Positions 10,693-19,565 of a stretch of 22,234 bases of DNA are shown here, in pieces; within the stretch, counting starts at the first letter, position 1; every line of letters begins with the position of its first letter. Position numbers and translations under genes: made by a program. A model generated the notes under the pieces. That model saw only the letters and a list, made by a program, of their open reading frames with translations, was not told the origin of the DNA and made no database searches. The stretch lies in IMG/VR virus record IMGVR_UViG_2718218227_000001, one strand, 5' to 3'. The stretch comes from a virus (lineage: Duplodnaviria; Heunggongvirae; Uroviricota; Caudoviricetes).

Positions 10693-10734
10693 CGCCATGA
10701 TTGCCACGGATGGCAACATATTAACGGCATAATA

Positions 10735-10763
10735 TTGACTTTTTGAATAACTTTGGGGAAACT
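10735..10763 (+). promoter_or_regulatory. pR'-like late promoter with Q-utilisation region
   Basis: TTGACT(10735-10740), a 17-bp spacer TTTTGAATAACTTTGGG, then GAAACT(10758-10763). This closely parallels lambda pR' as I remember it (TTGACT-TATTGAATAAAATTGGG-TAAATT). It lies 43 bp downstream of the Q stop. Confidence 0.45.
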
Positions 10764-10929
10764 TGACACCAATAATGGGCGTTTTTTACATGTCATTGAT
10801 GAGTCTCAATAACCTGCCGCCGAGTAGTTTTTATGCTCTGAATTGTATTTGTGTAGTAAACATGCTGACTGCAATGTAATAGAGTTTTTTTAGCCTGTAA
10901 CCTCTTGACGGCATTGAATTGCTTTTGTT

Positions 10930-11688
10930 ATGAGTTGTAAGCCAATGTTATCATCTTGTATTGGGGTGGTTATGAAGGATGGTGCGCTGCTCAGGAGTTC
11001 TTCACTTTTTATTGCCTACATGGGATGCCTTGGATGGGGGAGTGCTTATTTCTATGGATGGGGTACTTCTTTTTACTACGGCTTCCCATGGTGGATTGTA
11101 GGTGCAGGTGTTGATGATGTTGCCAGAAGTTTATTTTTTGCAGTTATCGTCATTGCTATATTTCTTATCGGTTGGGGTATTGGTGTTGTATTCTTTTTCG
11201 CAGTGAAAAGAAAACATTCTATGCAAGAGCTAAATGTATTTCGCCTTTATTTTGCTGTGGAATTATTGTTTGTGCCGGCAATTATTGAGTTTTCTATATT
11301 GAGACAGAAGATTCAGGTACCTCTTTTGCTACTGTCAGCAGCGATTGCGCTGGCGGTCACAATTTCGATAAGATCTTATGGGCGATTTTTATCGGTATCA
11401 TGCTTCTATGATAAGCCATTTATAAAAAAACATTTTTTTGAGATTGTGATGATTGCTTTTGTGGCATATTTCTGGCTTTTTTCATTTCTGACAGGATATT
11501 ACAAACCGCAGTTTAAGAAAGAATATGAAATGATTAATTATAATGATGGTTGGTATTATGTTCTTGCTCGTTATGATAATTGTCTGGTTTTGTCTACTTC
11601 TTTCAATGCAGGTAGTAAAAGGTTTGTGATTTATCAATCAGCACAAGATAAGAATCTTCAGGTTGATATTGTAAGGACCAGAATTTAA
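10930..11688 (+). CDS. AT-rich multi-pass membrane protein of unknown function in the Q-to-lysis (stx-equivalent) slot; start uncertain
   Basis: 252-aa ORF with several hydrophobic segments (WWIVGAGV..., FFAVIVIAIFLIGWGIGVVFFFAV, VPLLLLSAAIALAVTI, IVMIAFVAYFWLFSFL) and a roughly 70-aa hydrophilic C-terminus. Alternative start at 10972. Composition is much more AT-rich than the flanking Q and esterase genes. Confidence 0.5.
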   Translation: MSCKPMLSSCIGVVMKDGALLRSSSLFIAYMGCLGWGSAYFYGWGTSFYYGFPWWIVGAGVDDVARSLFFAVIVIAIFLIGWGIGVVFFFAVKRKHSMQELNVFRLYFAVELLFVPAIIEFSILRQKIQVPLLLLSAAIALAVTISIRSYGRFLSVSCFYDKPFIKKHFFEIVMIAFVAYFWLFSFLTGYYKPQFKKEYEMINYNDGWYYVLARYDNCLVLSTSFNAGSKRFVIYQSAQDKNLQVDIVRTRI

Positions 11689-12108
11689 TTGGCTGCATAA
11701 ATAATATTTTAAGTTGCAAGTTGGCTATTCGTAGGAATAGAACCTTAGGCATGCTGAATGCGTTTTCTGAACATTGTTTTATAAACTGTGTCTGCTTGCT
11801 GTTGTGATCCTGCTTTTAGTGATGGTGATGATGGATTTCACCAGCAGGATAATGTTGGTACTGACTGATGGCGCTCTGGTCTGCGGCATTGTGGTATTGC
11901 TGTGGCCGGTGATAAAAAGAAACAGCCTGCATAATGCTTGATTTTTTTGTTTACTGTTTATTAAAAATACTACTGCATGGTGAATCCCCCTGTGCGGAGG
12001 GGCAATCAGCAACCAGGTATATGTGATAATCGCGGATTCAGGTGCTGATACTGAATTCACCGGGAGGCACCCGGCACCATGCAAGAAAAAGAATGTGCAT
12101 GCAAACAT

Positions 12109-12135
12109 GCCCCTCTCCGGAGGGGCATTTTTTAT
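12109..12135 (+). terminator. Intrinsic terminator (GC hairpin plus T-run)
   Basis: GCCCCTCTCCGGAGGGGC hairpin followed by ATTTTTTAT. It is immediately followed by a second hairpin (GCCCGAATGGGTTCGGGC, 12147-12164) preceded by an A-run, which would terminate the opposite strand. Confidence 0.5.
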
Positions 12136-12348
12136 GGGTAAAAAATGCCCGAATGGGTTCGGGCAATAGCATGAGATACTGATATTGTTGTGTTGTTATC
12201 GTGTGGATTTTAACCAGGGTTTATCAGGCTGCGCAACTGCGTGGCCTTTTTTCATTTCTTGGGCTGTAGTCCCCGTGTGTCATTCAGGCTTCCGGACTAC
12301 AGCCCACTCCATATCTGATTTAATACACTATCCCGGCCGGGAGGAATA

Positions 12349-14201
12349 ATGACATTTAAACATTATGATGTTGTCAGGGCGGCGTCGCCGTCAGACCTTG
12401 CGGAAAAGCTGACACACAAACTGAAAGAGGGCTGGCAGCCGTTTGGTAGTCCGGTGGCCATAACCCCTTATACCCTGATGCAGGTGATTACAGCAGAAGG
12501 TGATGTGGTGGTCAGTGGTGCAACTGAGCCGGATTGGTACTACGTCATCGTACTGGCCGGGCAGTCCAATGCCATGGCTTACGGTGAAGGGCTTCCGCTG
12601 CCGGATTCATACGATGCTCCGGTCCGCGCATTAAACAGCTGGCGCGCCGCAGTACAGTTACGCCGGGTGGGGCTGCCTGCAGATATAACGATATTATTCC
12701 GGCCGACCACTGCCTGCATGATGTGCAGGATATGAGTACGCTGAATCATCCGAAGGCAGACCTGAGCAAAGGGCAGTACGGCTGTGTCGGCCAGGGCTTA
12801 CATATTGCCAAAAAACTGCTTCCGTATATCCCGAATAACGCGGGGATCCTGCTGGTACCATGCTGTCGTGGTGGTTCGGCATTCACCCAGGGCGCGGAGG
12901 GGACATTCAGTGCGGACGCGGGGGCCAGCCAGGATTCGGCGCGCTGGGGTGTGGGTAAACCGTTATATCAGGACCTGATTGCGCGCACTAAAGCTGCATT
13001 ACAGAAGAACCCGAAAAATGTGTTGCTGGCGGTGTGCTGGATGCAGGGAGAGTTTGACATGGGCGCCGCCACCCACGCACAGCAACCTGCGCTGTTTACA
13101 GCCATGCTGGCACAGTTTCGTGCTGACCTCTCCGTGTTTAACGCGCAGTGCCATGGTGGCAGTGCTGCAGATGTGCCGTGGATTTGTGGTGACACGACGT
13201 ATTACTGGAAAAATACCTACGGCACCCAGTACAACACCATTTACGGGGCGTACAAAAACAGGGAGAGTGAGGGCGTTTATTTTGTGCCCTTCATGACAGA
13301 CGGTAACGGCGTCAATACCGCCACTAACGCGCCGGCAGAAGATCCGGATATTCCGGCATCAGGATATTACGGTGCGGCATCGAGAACGAATGGAAACCAG
13401 GTATCATCAAACCGCCCGACACATTTCAGTTCATGGGCGCGCAGGAGCATTATTCCGGATCGTATGGCAACCGCTATTCTGAACGCAGCCGGGCGCACCT
13501 CAGCCTTCATCAGTGGTAAGGCACCGGAAATCAAACCCTCGCCCGGCGGCAACACGCCATCGGGTCCGTCTGCAGATACGTCCGTTCGCACAATCTCCCT
13601 GCTGCCGGCAGCCGGAGAGGCTGCTGCGCAGGGCTGGAGCATTAAGGATGGCGGAATTCAGTTGTCAGATGGTGTATTTAAGATCACCAGGCAGAGCAAT
13701 AAAACCTGGTCCCTGACGCATCCGGTGGATGACGCAATTACCCTGCTGACACAGGGCGGCAGACTGACCTGTAAGTTCCGCCTGTCAGGCGCACTGACCA
13801 ACAATCAGTTCGGGCTGGGGATTTATCTGTATACGGATGCTCCCGTTCCTGATGGTGTGGCGATGACGGGTACCGGTAATCCGTTCCTGATGTCGTACTT
13901 CACTCAGACCACTGACGGCAGAGTGAATCTGATGCATCACAGGAAAGCCGGAAACACGAAGCTGGGGGAGTTCGGCGATTACGGTAACGACTGGCAGACG
14001 CTGGAGCTGGTGTTCACCGCCGGCAGTGCCACGGTTACTCCGAAACTGAATGGAGTGGCTGGCCCGGCATTCCAGGTTATAAAAGACAGTATGACACTGG
14101 GACTGAATGCGCTGACGCTGACGGATGTTACAAAAAATGCAGCGTATGGCGTTGAGATAGAAAGTCTGGTGCTGGAGATAAATGCACCGGCATCATCATA
14201 A
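12349..14201 (+). pseudogene. nanS-p: Prophage sialate O-acetylesterase (NanS-p type, DUF1737 plus SGNH esterase), split by a frameshift
   Basis: ORF 12349..12735 encodes the DUF1737-like N-terminus and the start of the esterase domain (VIVLAGQSNAMAYGEG). The rest continues in another frame (ORF 12723..14201); that frame is open back to 12588 and reads ...PRIKQLARRSTVTPGGAACRYNDIIPADHCLHDVQDMS upstream of 12723. This is consistent with a 1-nt deletion near 12619-12624. Confidence 0.65.
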
Positions 14202-14350: not shown

Positions 14351-14566
14351 ATGTACCAGATGGAAAAAATCACAACGGGTGTGTCATACACCACGTCAGC
14401 GGTGGGGACGGGATACTGGTTACTGCAGCTGCTGGACAAAGTCTCTCCGTCCCAGTGGGTGGCGATAGGCGTGCTGGGGAGTCTGCTGTTTGGGCTGCTG
14501 ACATATCTGACGAACCTGTATTTCAAGATTAAAGAAGACCGGCGTAAGGCGGCGCGGGGAGAGTAA
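14351..14566 (+). CDS. S: Holin, class II pinholin (S21-like), dual-start motif
   Basis: 71 aa, [10 protein letters not shown]... with Met1/Met4 dual start, two transmembrane segments and a charged C-terminus ([13 protein letters not shown]); GGGAGACGGGG upstream of the ATG. Confidence 0.8.
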
Positions 14567-14570
14567 AGTG

Positions 14571-14915
14571 ATGAAGAAAAAATACGAACTGGTTGTTAAA
14601 GGGATAAATAATTACCCGGATAAGATTACTGTTACTGTGGCACTGGAAATTGGTGGGTATCCGTCACTGTTGTTGCCAGATGTGGCGATTAGTCTTGACC
14701 GTACTGAAGGTGCCACGCTGGAGTTTTACGAAGCTGAGGCGAAAAAGCAGGCGAAGCAGTTTTTCATGGATGTTGCTGCCGGGTTATGTGAAGGGGATGG
14801 TCCGTTACCGGAAAAGCGTCCCGTAATTTTAGAGGCGCAGGATGTGTTGATAACCTACAGAGGAAAACTACCGGGAATAATTACGGGTTCTCTGAAGACT
14901 CCACCGCTGGCCTGA
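14571..14915 (+). CDS. Hypothetical protein inserted between holin and endolysin
   Basis: 115-aa ORF starting 4 nt after the holin stop (in-frame GTG at 14568, ATG at 14571). No recognisable motif. Confidence 0.45.
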   Translation: MKKKYELVVKGINNYPDKITVTVALEIGGYPSLLLPDVAISLDRTEGATLEFYEAEAKKQAKQFFMDVAAGLCEGDGPLPEKRPVILEAQDVLITYRGKLPGIITGSLKTPPLA

Positions 14916-14965
14916 AGACTTAACATATCCAGGGATTTGAAATCGATAAACCCTGATAAATATCC

Positions 14966-15196
14966 ATGAACGCAAAAATCAGATACGGCCTGTCGGCTGC
15001 CGTTCTGGCGCTGATTGGTGCAGGGGCGTCTGCGCCTGAAATCCTCGACCAGTTTCTGGATGAAAAGGAAGGTAACCACACCACAGCATACCGTGATGGT
15101 GCGGGTATCTGGACCATCTGCCGTGGAGCCACCCGGGTGGATGGTAAGCCTGTGATTCCTGGCATGAAGCTGTCGAAGGGTAAGCGTACAGCCTGA
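14966..15196 (+). pseudogene. R: SAR endolysin (T4-lysozyme-like), truncated by IS66-family insertion
   Basis: N-terminal signal-anchor-release-type segment (YGLSAAVLALIGAGASA) and catalytic E-8aa-D-5aa-T triad (EGNHTTAYRDGAGIWT). The reading frame runs into IS-derived sequence at about 15180 and stops at 15196 after about 70 native codons. Confidence 0.65.
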
Positions 15197-15271
15197 ACCG
15201 TCTGGTCAGAATCTGACGAATTAGACAAAGTGGTGTCCACCAAATAAGTAGTGGGAACCAAAGTATCAGAT

Positions 15272-15652
15272 ATGCAGAAAAATGTGACTCCCGGCAGGCG
15301 AAAAGGCTGCCCTAATTATCCTCCCGAATTTAAACAGCAGCTCGTTGCTGCCTCCTGTGAACCCGGGATATCCATCTCAAAACTTGCTCTTGAAAATGGC
15401 ATTAACGCCAATCTGTTGTTCAAATGGCGACAACAATGGCGCGAGGGAAAGCTGCTATTACCTTCTTCAGAGAGCCCCCAGCTACTTCCTGTGACTCTCG
15501 ATGCAGCTGCCGAACAGCCAGAATCGCTCGCAGAGGACCCGGAAACCCTCAGTATCAGCTGTGAGGTAACGTTCCGGCACGGGACGCTCCGCTTCAATGG
15601 CAATGTCAGCGAAAAGCTCCTGACTCTGCTGATACAGGAACTGAAGCGATGA
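15272..15652 (+). CDS. IS66-family accessory protein (orfA, HTH)
   Basis: ATG at 15272; HTH-like segment PEFKQQLVAASCEPGISISKLALENGINANLLFKWRQQW; ATGA overlap with orfB at 15649-15652. Confidence 0.65.
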   Translation: MQKNVTPGRRKGCPNYPPEFKQQLVAASCEPGISISKLALENGINANLLFKWRQQWREGKLLLPSSESPQLLPVTLDAAAEQPESLAEDPETLSISCEVTFRHGTLRFNGNVSEKLLTLLIQELKR

Positions 15653-15996
15653 TCCCGTTACCTTCCGGGACCAAAATTTGGCTGGTTGCCGGTATCACCG
15701 ATATGAGAAATGGCTTCAACGGCCTGGCTGCGAAAGTACAAACGGCGCTGAAAGACGATCCCATGTCCGGCCATGTTTTCATTTTCCGGGGCCGCAGCGG
15801 CAGTCAGGTTAAACTGCTGTGGTCCACCGGTGACGGACTGTGCCTCCTGACCAAACGGCTGGAGCGTGGGCGCTTCGCCTGGCCGTCAGCCCGTGATGGC
15901 AAAGTGTTCCTTACGCAGGCGCAGCTGGCGATGCTGCTGGAAGGTATCGACTGGCGACAGCCTAAGCGGCTGCTGACCTCCCTGACCATGCTGTAA
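15649..15996 (+). CDS. tnpB: IS66-family accessory protein TnpB (orfB)
   Basis: 115-aa protein MIPLPSGTKIWLVAGITDMRNGFNGLAAKV..., recognised from memory as the conserved IS66 Orf2 family. Confidence 0.75.
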   Translation: MIPLPSGTKIWLVAGITDMRNGFNGLAAKVQTALKDDPMSGHVFIFRGRSGSQVKLLWSTGDGLCLLTKRLERGRFAWPSARDGKVFLTQAQLAMLLEGIDWRQPKRLLTSLTML

Positions 15997-16045
15997 ATCT
16001 CTTTATCCTGGTTGTCACAGAATAAGCCCGGTAAAATACGGGCTT

Positions 16046-16612
16046 ATGAACGACATCTCTTCTGACGACATCTTCCTGCTGAAACAGCGCCTGGCCGAAC
16101 AGGAAGCGCTGATCCACGCCCTGCAGGAAAAGCTGAGCAACCGGGAGCGCGAAATAGACCATCTGCAGGCGCAGCTGGATAAACTCCGCCGGATGAACTT
16201 CGGCAGTCGTTCCGAAAAAGTCTCCCGCCGTATCGCACAAATGGAAGCCGATCTGAACCGGCTTCAGAAAGAGAGCGATACGCTGACTGGTAGGGTGTAT
16301 GACCCGGCAGTACAGCGTCCGTTGCGTCAGACCCGCACCCGTAAGCCGTTCCCTGAATCACTACCCCGTGACGAAAAGCGACTGTTGCCTGCGGCGCCGT
16401 GCTGCCCGAACTGCGGCGGTTCACTGAGCTATCTGGGCGAGGATACCGCCGATGGCGCACTCATCACCGGACTGACCTTTCTTGCCCCCAAAGATGCCAC
16501 ACGGGTTCAGGGTTTTTTTCAGCATTTGCAGGTCAGGTTTGGTGACGGGCCGTGGCAGGATGTTAAGGGGCTGGATGAAGTGGGCAGTGATACAGGCAGA
16601 ACAGGAGAATGA
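16046..16612 (+). pseudogene. IS66-family transposase TnpC, truncated after about 135 codons and fused in frame to unrelated sequence
   Basis: N-terminal leucine-zipper-like region and CxxC zinc finger match IS66 TnpC; after GEDTA the frame continues into unrelated sequence (DGALITGLTFLAPKDATRVQGFF...) for 53 codons. Confidence 0.65.
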
Positions 16613-16613
16613 C

Positions 16614-16883
16614 ATGAATATACTAAAAAAACTTATGCAGCGTCTGTGCGGTTGCGGAAAGCATGATGACCGTGAACACGGGGAGTTACTTACAGCACAG
16701 CTGCGACTGGGGCCGGCAGACATCCTGGAGTCAGATGAGAATGGCATTATCCCGGAGCAGGCCAGGGTAATCACGCAGGTGGTGATACTGGATGCGGATA
16801 AAAAGCAGATACAGTGCGTGGTAAGACCGCTGCAAATCCTGCGTGCTGACGGGACGTGGGAAAATATTGGCGGGATGAAGTAA
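16614..16883 (+). CDS. Small hypothetical protein (89 aa)
   Basis: ATG at 16614 with AGGAGA upstream; contains a CGCGKHDD motif; followed by an intrinsic terminator. No family recognised. Confidence 0.4.
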   Translation: MNILKKLMQRLCGCGKHDDREHGELLTAQLRLGPADILESDENGIIPEQARVITQVVILDADKKQIQCVVRPLQILRADGTWENIGGMK

Positions 16884-16896
16884 CCCGACAGCTTCA

Positions 16897-16925
16897 CAAA
16901 ACCGGAGTCCGGCTCCGGTTTTTGT
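16897..16925 (+). terminator. Intrinsic terminator
   Basis: Stem ACCGGAG(16901-16907) / CTCCGGT(16913-16919), 5-nt loop, followed by a T-run. Confidence 0.55.
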
Positions 16926-16986
16926 TGTCATGTACGGTGGATGTTTGTTATGACTCCCTGTGTTTGGAATGAATATTTAATAACAG

Positions 16987-17466
16987 GTGTCTGGAAATAT
17001 AGGGGCAAATCTACTGGATAGGCTATTGGGGCGTGAGAATCGAATGGAGAGAAGGGCTGTGGCTCTGGAAAGGCAATTAAATGGAGGTGTCGATTTTTTA
17101 AGGAGTGTTAATAACTATTTTCAGAGTGTCATGGCAGAACACAGAGAAAATAAAACAAGTAATAAAATATTAATGGAAAAAATAAATTCCTGTGTATTTG
17201 GAACGGATTCTAATCACTTTTCTTGCCCGGAGTCATTTTTGACATGCCCGATAACGCTGGACACACCTGCGAATGGAGTGTTCATGAGAAACTCACAAGG
17301 TGCTGAGATATGCTCTCTATATGATAAGGACACGTTAGTGCAACTTGTTGAAACTGGTGGAGCTCATCCTCTGAGTCGAGAACCTATAACAGAATCAATG
17401 ATTATGAGAAAAGACGAATGTCACTTTGATTCAAAAAAAGAATCCTTTGTTGCAAGTGATGCTTAA
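16987..17466 (+). CDS. nleG: NleG-family type III effector (U-box E3 ligase), short form lacking the usual N-terminal region
   Basis: C-terminal U-box region (FSCPESFLTCPITLDTPANGVFMRNSQGAEICSLYDKDTLVQLVETGGAHPLSREP) is conserved with the full-length nleG at 18733..19383. The ORF is only 159 aa and in-frame stops lie immediately upstream. Confidence 0.65.
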   Translation: MSGNIGANLLDRLLGRENRMERRAVALERQLNGGVDFLRSVNNYFQSVMAEHRENKTSNKILMEKINSCVFGTDSNHFSCPESFLTCPITLDTPANGVFMRNSQGAEICSLYDKDTLVQLVETGGAHPLSREPITESMIMRKDECHFDSKKESFVASDA

Positions 17467-17595
17467 TTTTTTTTGTTGGTGTGTTTTTATATTAATAGTT
17501 TATTATAATAGTGCCATGTAAGGATATATTGTCTGAACAATTATTCAGACAATATTTTTTTCTTGCTTTATATGAAATATATAATATTTGGATCC

Positions 17596-18654
17596 TTAAT
17601 TTCTAACCAAGGGGTCCCATGTTTTTATGTTATGATGCAGCCCATAATTTCGGGGGCTACATGCAAGAATATCTTTTTCTTCGGCGCCTGATTTGCGTAA
17701 AAACGTGGCTGCGCCAGAAGAACAATTACCTTGTGTTTCTGTGAATGGCGGTAACATTTTGTAAGTCGGTATGTTGTTGAGCATTGTTTTTATATTGTCA
17801 GCTGGAATTGATTTTTCTTCATGTAGTGGTGTCGGGATAAGCGTTCCATTTCTCTGAAGTACTTCATCTGAATACAATCGATGTAGCAACAAACTCTGTT
17901 TTGTCTCTATTAATGAGATTGAGCTGATATTGGGTAAGTAACGAATTGATAACTGACTGAGTTTTATTACATTCCCTGAATAAAGATACTCACCTAACTC
18001 TGAAAATTTCCTTCCTGTTATCTTATCTGTATCATCAGAACTAATATTTTCGAACATTCTTACGTCTCGCTCTCCTAAGTTTGGTTTTGCATTATCTTTT
18101 CCATTGTTTTTATATATCCACATCTCTTTTTTTTCTGAAGGAATCAAATATGTAAGTGATTTTACTTCATCTGCAATTTGTTCTTGTTGGATATTGGTAT
18201 TGGCCTTTAACCTGGTTTCATTATACCTTTTATAAAAATCTTCAATGCATGTGAATTTTTGCCCTTGTAGTTTTATAACCGTTTCTTTTACATCGATTGG
18301 AAATTTATTTTGATTTCGCACATTATTTAACTTTTTTAAAAATAAAGAGTCAATGTCTATTCGGGAGCGTTTATCATCACTGTTTATGGCATAGTATTGG
18401 GCTCCGCTCCTGCTTCCCATTCCTGGGGTCCCTGCAATAATAAATGAGTGACTTCTTGTATGTCTGCCATTGAGTAGAGCAAGGGGAGTTTTAGCTGTAG
18501 CCAACCATACAGGAACGGATTTTAAAGATATACCATATTCTTTATGAACAATTCTTCTGGAGACGGGGTTCGTCATTGTTGTTTCATTTGAAAGTTGTTG
18601 ATGTTCACTGAACAGATGGTAACATGATGATACAACTGATGATATTTTGGGCAT
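17596..18654 (-). CDS. espW: Type III secreted effector, EspW-like (352 aa)
   Basis: 352-aa AT-rich ORF flanked by nleG and espM genes. The espW call rests on size and on my recollection that an espM2 - nleG - espW - nleG block sits next to ssrA in O157-type genomes; it is not a motif-level identification. Confidence 0.5.
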   Translation of the reverse strand: MPKISSVVSSCYHLFSEHQQLSNETTMTNPVSRRIVHKEYGISLKSVPVWLATAKTPLALLNGRHTRSHSFIIAGTPGMGSRSGAQYYAINSDDKRSRIDIDSLFLKKLNNVRNQNKFPIDVKETVIKLQGQKFTCIEDFYKRYNETRLKANTNIQQEQIADEVKSLTYLIPSEKKEMWIYKNNGKDNAKPNLGERDVRMFENISSDDTDKITGRKFSELGEYLYSGNVIKLSQLSIRYLPNISSISLIETKQSLLLHRLYSDEVLQRNGTLIPTPLHEEKSIPADNIKTMLNNIPTYKMLPPFTETQGNCSSGAATFLRKSGAEEKDILACSPRNYGLHHNIKTWDPLVRN

Positions 18655-18732
18655 AAATAGTCTCCTCGCTATATGTTTGTTATATGGTGATTAACTTATT
18701 GAAAATATGCTTCTTATATTGTGCTTTTATTT

Positions 18733-19383
18733 TTAAATACTGTTTTGTTGAAGTGGGTATATGGGTAATGCGTAAAAACATTGTTTTGTTATATTAAAAT
18801 GACACTTGTCTTTGCTTATAATCATTTCTGGAGCAAAGGGGTCACGGCTGAGGGGGTGGAGAGCGTTACGCAGGATAAGTTCAGTCAATGCTTCCTGATC
18901 ATATAATGCACATATTTCTGAATTTCGAGCATTTCTGACAAAAACACCTGTCTCAGGAATATGTAGCGTTATCGGACAATTAAGATGTTCCTCAGTACAG
19001 GAAAAGTCTTGTAAACTAACGGGAAATGCATTCGAATTTATTCGATCTAGTAGTGTTTTTATGACGCTCTCCTGCACAAGCGGGGCAGCTTGCCTCTGCT
19101 CCAGATATAAGCTGTATGCCTGCAGAAAAGTGTTACCTCCGTTAAGTTGTCTTGTCAGGCGGTCTGCGAGATGATGAGCCTCTCTTGCCCCAAGATGGTC
19201 CCAAAGTCCACCAAGAATAGGCTCAACACTAAAACCATCCATAAACTGGATATAATGAAGCCTCATATTACGGCCTCCTATAGTAATAGTGTCATTCTGG
19301 TTGCTTCTTGCTATATGTCGTAAAGCCTCCAGCTCATTTTCCGGCAATACACTTCCATTAGAAAAATTTAATATGACTGGCAT
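18733..19383 (-). CDS. nleG: NleG-family type III effector (U-box E3 ubiquitin ligase), full length
   Basis: 216 aa with the conserved C-terminal U-box core (FSCTEEHLNCPITLHIPETGVFVRNARNSEICALYDQEALTELILRNALHPLSRDP). Confidence 0.8.
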   Translation of the reverse strand: MPVILNFSNGSVLPENELEALRHIARSNQNDTITIGGRNMRLHYIQFMDGFSVEPILGGLWDHLGAREAHHLADRLTRQLNGGNTFLQAYSLYLEQRQAAPLVQESVIKTLLDRINSNAFPVSLQDFSCTEEHLNCPITLHIPETGVFVRNARNSEICALYDQEALTELILRNALHPLSRDPFAPEMIISKDKCHFNITKQCFYALPIYPLQQNSI

Positions 19384-19565
19384 ATTATTATCCTTTTTAA
19401 TCCATATTGTGAACTATATTGGTAACAAGAATCAACATGCCGCTCATGATATGTGAATAAAACAATACAATTTTTAATAGAATATTATTGCATGCATGTT
19501 TTTTCTGGCTACAATAAACGCAAGTATGCAATATTGTAAACACTTTTTTATAAAAAGGAATTATA

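Follow-up and report, generated by a model that had tools for sequence, protein, structure and literature searches.

A TfpB/STM1630-family membrane protein gene downstream of Q in a decayed lambdoid prophage: a candidate lysogenic-conversion cassette shared with phage 434

The window examined here is the whole of a 22,234-nucleotide stretch of viral DNA (IMG/VR record IMGVR_UViG_2718218227_000001), which represents a decayed lambdoid prophage inserted at ssrA, with the transfer-messenger RNA (tmRNA) gene located at 21175-21537 on the minus strand. Between its late antiterminator gene Q and its holin gene S lies a gene for a membrane protein of the TfpB/STM1630 family (Table 1). A preliminary description of this DNA had reported, at 10693-11688, an AT-rich gene of foreign composition in the position that stx holds in Shiga toxin (Stx) phages. 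The composition was confirmed, as the open reading frame (ORF) has a GC content of 36.6% (31.6% at third codon positions, GC3) compared to 50.8% for Q and 55.4% for the downstream esterase gene, and the position was also as described, with Q and a pR'-like promoter followed by the cargo, nanS-p and the holin gene. With regard to the interval, the gene does end at 11688, but 10693-10971 (approximately 280 nt) is intergenic or regulatory DNA and not coding. The maximal open frame runs from 10930 to the stop at 11688 (252 aa). Nearly all of the approximately 55 full-length family members are 236-240 aa in length and start at a Met equivalent to ATG 10972, and because homologues begin at this position, ATG 10972 is the most likely start codon, giving a protein of 238 aa. 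The starts ATG 10930 and ATG 10945 (the RefSeq start) were considered and rejected, as they are not conserved as starts and lie inside a conserved promoter-like element or leader. A chance ORF is ruled out by the presence of full-length homologues in five bacterial families, with E-values down to 1e-60 and below.

Table 1. Features of the window from Q to the start of the lysis cassette
Feature	Position	Strand	Basis
Late antiterminator Q, lambda type, 207 aa	10069..10692	+	PF03589 Antiterm, E 4e-58
pR'-like late promoter and Q-utilisation (qut) region	10735..10776	+	Likeness to annotated pR'/qut
Degenerate terminator remnant, AACCTGCCGCCGAGTAG + T5	10811..10833	+	Aligns with terminator annotated in 434
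Putative own promoter of the cassette	10905..10934	+	Conservation across unrelated contexts
TfpB/STM1630-family inner-membrane protein gene	10972..11688	+	238 aa; Shine-Dalgarno sequence GGGGTGG at 10963-10969; PHROG 1521
DUF3927/TciB-like small membrane protein, 55 aa, second cassette gene	11774..11941	+	PF13064, E 1.4e-13; PHROG 1470 'TciB-like'
Strong GC hairpin between A and T runs, resembling a bidirectional terminator, closing the cassette	12107..12128	.	Terminator scan
Second hairpin	12226-12247		Terminator scan
nanS-p-like sialate O-acetylesterase gene (DUF1737 + SASA + DUF6645)	12349..14201	+	Pfam matches
Class II (P21/933W-type) holin S, start of the lysis cassette	14351..14566	+	PF04971, E 3.5e-32; RefSeq 'class II holin' (TR01 annotation)

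The predicted protein is 100% identical to CPT_434_68 of phage 434 (gp68, UMO75332.1) and 98% identical to a protein of phage 2B8. In 434 it is annotated as a 'putative membrane protein' within the '434B' non-homology region, while the 2B8 counterpart is named 'Phage protein'; the exact protein is also deposited as WP_001302581.1. The window resembles 434 in having this gene downstream of a late antiterminator and in carrying the DUF3927/TciB gene, the nanS-p-like esterase gene and the class II holin gene. It differs from 434 in its lambda-type Q, its degenerate terminator and its state as a prophage remnant, whereas 434 has a Q82-like antiterminator, an annotated upstream terminator and an extra small membrane gene, gp70, that is absent from the window. 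The gene is intact in related prophages. A viral-contig survey covered the best 80 loci, and all 80 of these encode a 100% identical protein. Q was found upstream in 79 (47 of lambda type and 32 Q82-like), the remaining contig lacking upstream DNA, and the DUF3927 gene is next after the TfpB gene in 79 of the 80. It is followed by 434 gp70 in 67 loci, often by nanS-p, and by the holin gene wherever the contig extends that far. Lambdoid phages place the cassette between pR' and the lysis genes, with its gene order kept, whatever the Q type, and in Yersinia enterocolitica a 45%-identical homologue lies after a third Q family, PF06530. Among complete E. coli genomes, some homologue is present in 1197 of 5426 (approximately 22%), and this allele (at least 99% identity) in 679 (approximately 12%). 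The E. coli alleles of the family are divergent, at 39-68% identity.

In a collection of 50,697 phage records, the gene was found in 434 and 2B8 only. Since none of the sequenced Stx phages in this collection carries it, the TfpB-family gene seems to occupy the slot as an alternative to stx. In Stx phages the cargo lies between Q/pR' and nanS-p/S and is transcribed by Q-modified polymerase, and the arrangement in the window is similar to this. The TfpB-family protein, unlike the product of stxAB, is not a toxin; it is a five-helix membrane protein with no signal peptide and no AB5 architecture, and its gene probably has its own constitutive promoter. Stx phages also have tRNA genes in the Q-to-S slot. 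None was detected in this slot in the window, where the sole hit of an RNA-gene scan was ssrA.

The protein belongs to PHROG 1521, a phage protein family of unknown function, with a match along the whole profile (positions 1-222 of 222, E 2.1e-154). Among 5.8 billion proteins searched, 104 relatives were found, all with a precomputed match to PF27470; the identical-sequence cluster (P0001) carries PF27470.1, and contig look-ups name PF27470 'TfpB'. Our own scans of the protein against Pfam-A, NCBIfam and PADLOC returned no relevant family (PADLOC, 0 families at E <= 1), and the TfpB name is based on the precomputed PF27470 annotation together with our profile search, in which a profile of 20 members matched the Moraxella 'protein tfpB' (Joint Genome Institute name; P0220) at E 5e-64 and 29% identity. 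Moraxella bovis/lacunata TfpB, the name-giver of PF27470, shares the N-terminal aromatic motif and the overall length, but at 261 aa it is found in an invertible pilin segment and has no phage association. To our knowledge, no function has been assigned to it. The window protein also matches, at E 1e-70 and 46% identity over the full 238 aa, the product of a Salmonella gene beside sseJ (P0075), and some E. coli homologues are named 'STM1630 family protein' in RefSeq. From the sseJ neighbour and this naming, we infer that the Salmonella gene is STM1630. The novelty implied in the preliminary description did not hold up: the gene is annotated in 434, and its family is already catalogued in Pfam, PHROGs and RefSeq naming. 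No usable literature was found on PF27470, tciA/tciB, the 434B region or Moraxella tfpB/piv, and a search of the LT-II prophage literature yielded nothing on this gene.

When 1.84 billion representative proteins were searched exhaustively with a family profile, only 73 clusters matched, and the 16 of these that were looked up belonged to Neisseria, Pasteurellaceae (Actinobacillus, Gallibacterium, Avibacterium, Pasteurella and Mannheimia), Klebsiella and Mangrovibacter. Overall, the named sources of matches were Enterobacterales, Neisseria, Pasteurellaceae and Moraxella, with a more distant Klebsiella electrica/Mangrovibacter branch. The matches were to animal-associated bacteria, the exceptions being a single weak match to Klebsiella electrica, another to Mangrovibacter, and a small number of unnamed metagenome clusters. 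A scan of one genome per species (185,579 species) found 26 loci, a lower bound given the strict pattern used, in Escherichia, Salmonella, Pasteurellaceae, Neisseriaceae, Moraxella and one contaminated metagenome-assembled genome (MAG). A contig labelled as a Veillonella MAG (L108) has the E. coli allele at 100% identity, almost certainly through binning contamination.

Outside of phages, homologues are single genes that lack the DUF3927 gene in every context, and for this reason the DUF3927 protein was rejected as an obligate partner. Enterotoxigenic E. coli (ETEC) plasmids encoding the heat-labile (LT) and heat-stable (STb) enterotoxins carry a 59%-identical homologue (L004-L008, gene at 5001-5714) that is divergent from eltAB, approximately 870 bp away, with estB also near. 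This ETEC-type homologue was found on 908 contigs, and its location hints that the LT locus adjoins a fragment of a lambdoid late-region cargo cassette. Homologues are carried by 106 Shigella plasmid records. In the one record examined, the virulence plasmid pWR100 of S. flexneri M90T (L107, 6001-6717), there is an intact, 57%-identical homologue among insertion sequence (IS) fragments, with no partner genes, and the homologue of S. dysenteriae 1617 is annotated as 'TfpB protein'. In Citrobacter rodentium the homologue is directly beside a split lpxR (L020, 4863-5823), while in phage 434 the lipid A deacylase gene lpxR (L001, 810-1769) adjoins the Q/TfpB region; the C. rodentium islet suggests a collapsed 434-like late region. 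In extraintestinal pathogenic E. coli (ExPEC) the homologue is located between iroBC and bor, and in Pasteurellaceae and Neisseriaceae the homologues are single-gene insertions between unrelated housekeeping genes. In every Moraxella locus examined, the TfpB gene is part of the invertible pilin locus, with pilin genes of opposing orientation on its two sides, and both inversion states are present in public assemblies (L013-L016, L123-L126, L133): in L016 and L125 it follows the full-length pilin gene in the same orientation, while in L013-L015, L124 and L126 the two genes converge. Locus L013 contains further pilin-flanked ORFs of 295-303 aa with no Pfam match. In Glaesserella parasuis (L116), the homologue (4974-5702) is convergent with ORFs at 5955-8017 that are sized and ordered like cdtABC, the nearest one having been scanned and found to match a CdtA/C domain. 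This would be a third AB-type toxin neighbourhood for the family, after eltAB and the stx slot, although it could be a coincidence arising from mobile-element origin.

Hydropathy analysis revealed at least four strongly hydrophobic segments and a weaker aromatic one, and an AlphaFold2 (AF2) model contained five long helices (residues 3-36, 47-78, 89-111, 116-136 and 155-181) followed by five beta strands (187-232), in agreement with the multi-pass membrane protein of the preliminary description. This model was obtained with a diverse alignment of 50 sequences (predicted local distance difference test score, pLDDT, 76.5; predicted template modelling score, pTM, 0.69); it replaced a first model based on 25 enterobacterial sequences, which was too poor to use (pLDDT 57.8). 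In 50 homologues the mean number of Lys and Arg residues was 1.3 at the N-terminus, 0.1 in loop 1 (which is acidic), 3.3 in loop 2, 0.5 in loop 3 and 4.6 in loop 4. By the positive-inside rule, the N-terminus and loops 2 and 4 would be cytoplasmic and loops 1 and 3 periplasmic, so that the predicted topology is N-in/C-out, with five transmembrane (TM) helices followed by a C-terminal beta domain of approximately 55 residues in the periplasm. The most conserved part of the protein is TM1 plus loop 1, which contains an aromatic/glycine belt, AYxGxxGWxSAYxYGWG...YYGFPWW, at what would be the periplasmic end of TM1, and then D..ARSL. The next most conserved part is TM5 and the beginning of the beta domain. 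Residues A25, Y26, W30, W40, A51, G175 and F218 were invariant in alignments of 20-50 sequences. The protein has the architecture of PF27470, that is, a length of approximately 238-261 aa, an N-terminal aromatic/Gly motif, a multi-TM core and a C-terminal beta domain. In a fold search, no solved or viral predicted structure resembled the AF2 model.

The DNA between Q and the gene was compared with that of other phages. The window Q is 98% identical to Q of the functional phage 2B8, and window 10685-10960 is identical to 2B8 in alignment. The first 80 nt or so after Q (approximately 10696-10772) are approximately 92% identical to the annotated pR'/qut of HK97, mEp234, HK446 and others. Following the mEp234 annotation, to which the window was aligned, the pR' hexamers are probably TTGACT (-35, 10735-10740) and GAAACT (-10, 10758-10763), with the Q-binding region in between, and a -10-like AATAAT is found in the initial transcribed region at approximately 10771-10776. 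Homology to phage 434 begins at window 10828. The terminator remnant forms the upstream edge of the cassette common to the window and 434, and its 434 counterpart is an annotated terminator (L001, 2982-3007); the ExPEC locus also aligns a GC-hairpin and T-run with it. The terminator hairpin found approximately 45 nt downstream in mEp234 is reduced in the window to AACCTGCCGCCGAGTAG-T5. A consensus-based scan, which could miss a weak terminator, called no intrinsic terminator in 10693-10971, and no structured RNA was indicated in 10762-10975, as the fold was no better than that of shuffles (z = -0.13).

The upstream DNA of four copies in unrelated contexts was also aligned, namely those in the O157 prophage, in phage 434, on an ETEC plasmid and in the ExPEC iro-bor islet, and E. 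albertii and a further Escherichia sp. were added in a side-by-side comparison. Homology among the four starts abruptly at CTCTTGAC(G/T) (window 10902-10910), and the shared block runs on through TTTGT(T/A)ATG, 17-18 nt after CTCTTGAC(G/T). The conserved element, just 5' of the gene, has the form CTCTTGAC(G/T)-N18-TG-extended -10-like, and in the window consists of TTGACG (10905-10910), TG (10926-10927) and TATGAG (10929-10934). Because homology among unrelated contexts begins at this element, the comparison suggests that the cassette has its own sigma-70-type promoter, with TTGACG as the -35 and a weak TG-extended -10. A second match to the promoter consensus, TTGTTA-18-TATCAT (10925-10954), overlaps this putative promoter.

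The reading that we favour, with somewhat better than even confidence, is that these features make up a self-contained lysogenic-conversion cassette for a host-serving inner-membrane protein of the TfpB/STM1630 family. The cassette would comprise, in order, the promoter-like element, the tfpB-like gene, the DUF3927 gene and the hairpin terminator, and would behave as a lysogenic-conversion 'moron', with transcription in the lysogen starting at the cassette's own promoter. In intact phages such as 434 and 2B8, Q-modified transcription from pR' would also cross the gene on its way to the lysis genes. Upstream of ninG, the prophage lacks the immunity, replication and N region (no repressor, cro, N, O or P), according to the annotation of the corresponding locus of E. 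coli O157 strain TR01 (L003). As this early region is missing, self-induction cannot drive Q in the window, and expression could occur by way of the cassette's own promoter, by constitutive read-through from pR' up to the hairpin at 12107, or with Q supplied in trans by another prophage. Given the putative promoter and the degenerate terminator upstream of it, expression during lysogeny is likely.

The preliminary description had concluded that placement in the late operon implies expression coupled to induction. Under this stx-like scheme the lysogen would not express the gene until Q antiterminates pR', and the product would act during or after prophage induction. The gene does occupy the stx slot, with a pR'/qut-like element upstream, it has to be crossed by late transcription in intact phages, 434 has an annotated terminator separating it from pR', and its absence from the Stx phages of the collection fits with an alternative occupant of that slot. 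However, the conclusion was too strong. The conserved promoter-like box is found at the cassette boundary in non-phage contexts, the terminator in the window is degenerate and not predicted, and a remnant with no early region cannot drive Q by its own induction. Homologues also persist where no Q or pR' exists (STM1630, the plasmids and the islets), and STM1630 is expressed outside any phage from its own mapped promoter (PMC6785131). We consider induction-only late cargo an unlikely account of the gene, albeit the best placed of the alternatives, and induction-only expression unlikely in this remnant. We advise against interpreting the Q-to-S slot of this prophage as the site of a hidden toxin-like factor made on induction only. 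Cargo 'morons' in the Q-to-S slot of lambdoid phages are well known and would be expected by phage specialists, and we regard this gene as 'cargo' of the ordinary kind and not as a new toxin-like gene.

Within the lysogenic-conversion reading, the protein would serve the bacterial host and not phage lysis, and would act alone at the interface of the inner membrane and periplasm, modulating an envelope or surface structure during host association. This role is more tentative than the cassette itself, and we regard it as possible at somewhat less than even confidence. It is favoured because the gene is retained in dead prophages, virulence plasmids and islets, because the named matches are almost all animal-associated, and because of its expression in Salmonella, where STM1630 is the only family member for which there are experimental data. 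STM1630, beside sseJ (STM1631), has the same length and predicted architecture as the window protein and is likewise AT-rich, horizontally acquired cargo, but it is chromosomal, outside of a prophage, and has its own mapped promoter and no DUF3927 partner. It belongs to a gene set that virulence regulators control jointly with Salmonella pathogenicity island 2 (SPI-2; PMC2639726). It was selected from intra-macrophage RNA-seq data, with lower expression in ST313 strain D23580 than in 4/74 (PMC6785131; bioRxiv 10.1101/450098), and its mapped -10 box is destroyed by two single-nucleotide polymorphisms in ST313 (PMC6785131). A deletion of STM1630 was scored as hypermotile in a screen, with 1.7-fold swimming and 1.6-fold swarming (PMC4219756).

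Several points weigh against this interpretation. Deletion of STM1630 leaves intramacrophage replication unchanged (PMC6785131), hypermotility is missing from the phenotypes that clean deletions confirmed (PMC4534456), and no experiment assigns a function to any member of the family. Co-location with virulence cargo could reflect shared mobile-element ancestry, and co-regulation with SPI-2 may be generic counter-silencing of H-NS on AT-rich DNA. The putative promoter has a poor -10 hexamer and was recognised from conservation alone, and the AF2 model is of moderate confidence, with no fold or sequence match to anything characterised.

The product could instead be a superinfection-exclusion or anti-phage membrane protein, possibly of a new exclusion family, that blocks DNA entry or triggers abortive infection at the level of the membrane. 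A multi-pass inner-membrane protein with a predicted periplasmic domain, encoded by a prophage moron with a likely lysogenic promoter, would suit such a function, and the known exclusion proteins P22 SieA and T4 Imm are likewise located in the inner membrane. The many divergent E. coli alleles, and the presence of the family on plasmids and in islets, are also consistent with it. On the other hand, PADLOC gave no family at the threshold used, nearly all named matches are animal-associated as opposed to the broad range typical of defence genes, and in Salmonella the gene has a stable chromosomal position with virulence-type regulation (PMC2639726). We judge such a putative exclusion function to be a fair alternative, if a rather improbable one.

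A broader and more speculative idea, to which we give only a small chance, is that the family is an unrecognised class of single-gene, periplasm-facing inner-membrane factors that are delivered by mobile elements to animal-associated Gram-negative bacteria and act on a conserved envelope machine. Candidates for such a machine, if this is true, include the handling of type IV pilins or type II secretion pseudopilins and the release of periplasmic AB toxins, which would explain why members of the family are neighbours of eltAB and cdtABC, occupy the stx slot and are found within the pilin switch of Moraxella.

A narrower possibility is an accessory factor for type IV pilin-like proteins, in pili or type II secretion pseudopili, that resembles TfpY or FimB. 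TfpY, TfpZ and FimB are proteins of 235-245 aa with an N-in membrane anchor and a periplasmic C-terminal beta-containing domain (PMC11841053), TfpY and FimB being promoters of pilus assembly, and the window protein is similar in its size, its plan and its odd number of TM helices. Position downstream of the major pilin gene, as for TfpY and FimB, was found for the Moraxella members only, and in one inversion state, where TfpB is co-oriented with the expressed pilin gene. Against this, no pilin gene was found in the window or within 5 kb at any non-Moraxella locus, and the 16 clusters looked up did not include Pseudomonas, Acinetobacter or Dichelobacter relatives of TfpY or FimB. TfpY has three TM helices and a larger, mixed alpha/beta domain (PMC11841053), as compared to five TM helices and an all-beta domain of approximately 55 aa here, and the profile search of 1.84 billion proteins detected no sequence relation to TfpY or FimB, although this was not a direct profile comparison with TfpY. 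We therefore consider a pilin accessory role to be highly doubtful.

Holins are much smaller proteins, with one to four TM helices. A role as a holin, antiholin or lysis-timing factor, which could be imagined for a membrane protein encoded in the late region upstream of S, is largely refuted and essentially excluded, since the prophage has a bona fide P21-type holin gene of its own (Table 1), the protein has 238 aa, five TM helices and a beta domain with no holin match in Pfam or PHROGs, its gene lies approximately 2.7 kb and two terminators upstream of S with the esterase gene in between, and homologues occur where there are no lysis genes.

For annotation, we suggest that the gene be called from ATG 10972 and named as a TfpB/STM1630-family membrane protein instead of 'hypothetical'. 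As this uncharacterised membrane protein is carried by the classical, genetically tractable phage 434, the question of its function is easy to address, and a function determined from 434 would be the first for a family tied to many virulence loci.

Downstream of the cassette, a 38-bp unit with the hairpin ATGCCCCTCTCCGGAGGGGCAT is present as a single copy in the window and as a tandem or inverted pair in TR01, and the hairpin unit that closes the cassette resembles a bidirectional terminator with a copy number that differs among strains. The nanS-p-like gene is split into ORFs 12349-12735 and 12723-14201 by one missing A near 12660, while its TR01 counterpart is a single 617-aa ORF, and the split gene is either a pseudogene or the result of a sequencing error. 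A DUF1327 gene was also identified in the holin region by the Pfam scan.

Many E. coli O157:H7 genomes match window 10693-11760 at 100% identity, and 11900-12760 differs from TR01 by two indels only. The TR01 annotation begins with integrases, an IS30 fragment, an HNH endonuclease, NinG, the NinI phosphatase and the antiterminator, continues with a 'hypothetical protein', the DUF3927 protein, the DUF6645/SASA esterase, the class II holin, YdfR and a truncated endolysin, and ends with IS66 and IS1203 elements, tail-fibre fragments, nleG-like genes, espW, espM2 and ssrA. By this annotation, in window 14900-21100 the endolysin gene is cut off by IS66 and IS1203 and the tail genes are reduced to tail-fibre fragments, while the type III secretion effector genes espW, espM2 and nleG-like (DUF1076) adjoin ssrA. 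At the other end, window 1-6200 contains two tandem tyrosine integrase genes in very AT-rich DNA (approximately 30-33% GC). A perfect hexanucleotide microsatellite, (TATTTC) x 12.8, at 7987-8063 forms the junction of this AT-rich integrase island and the IS30 fragment with the HNH-ninG-ninI-Q block.

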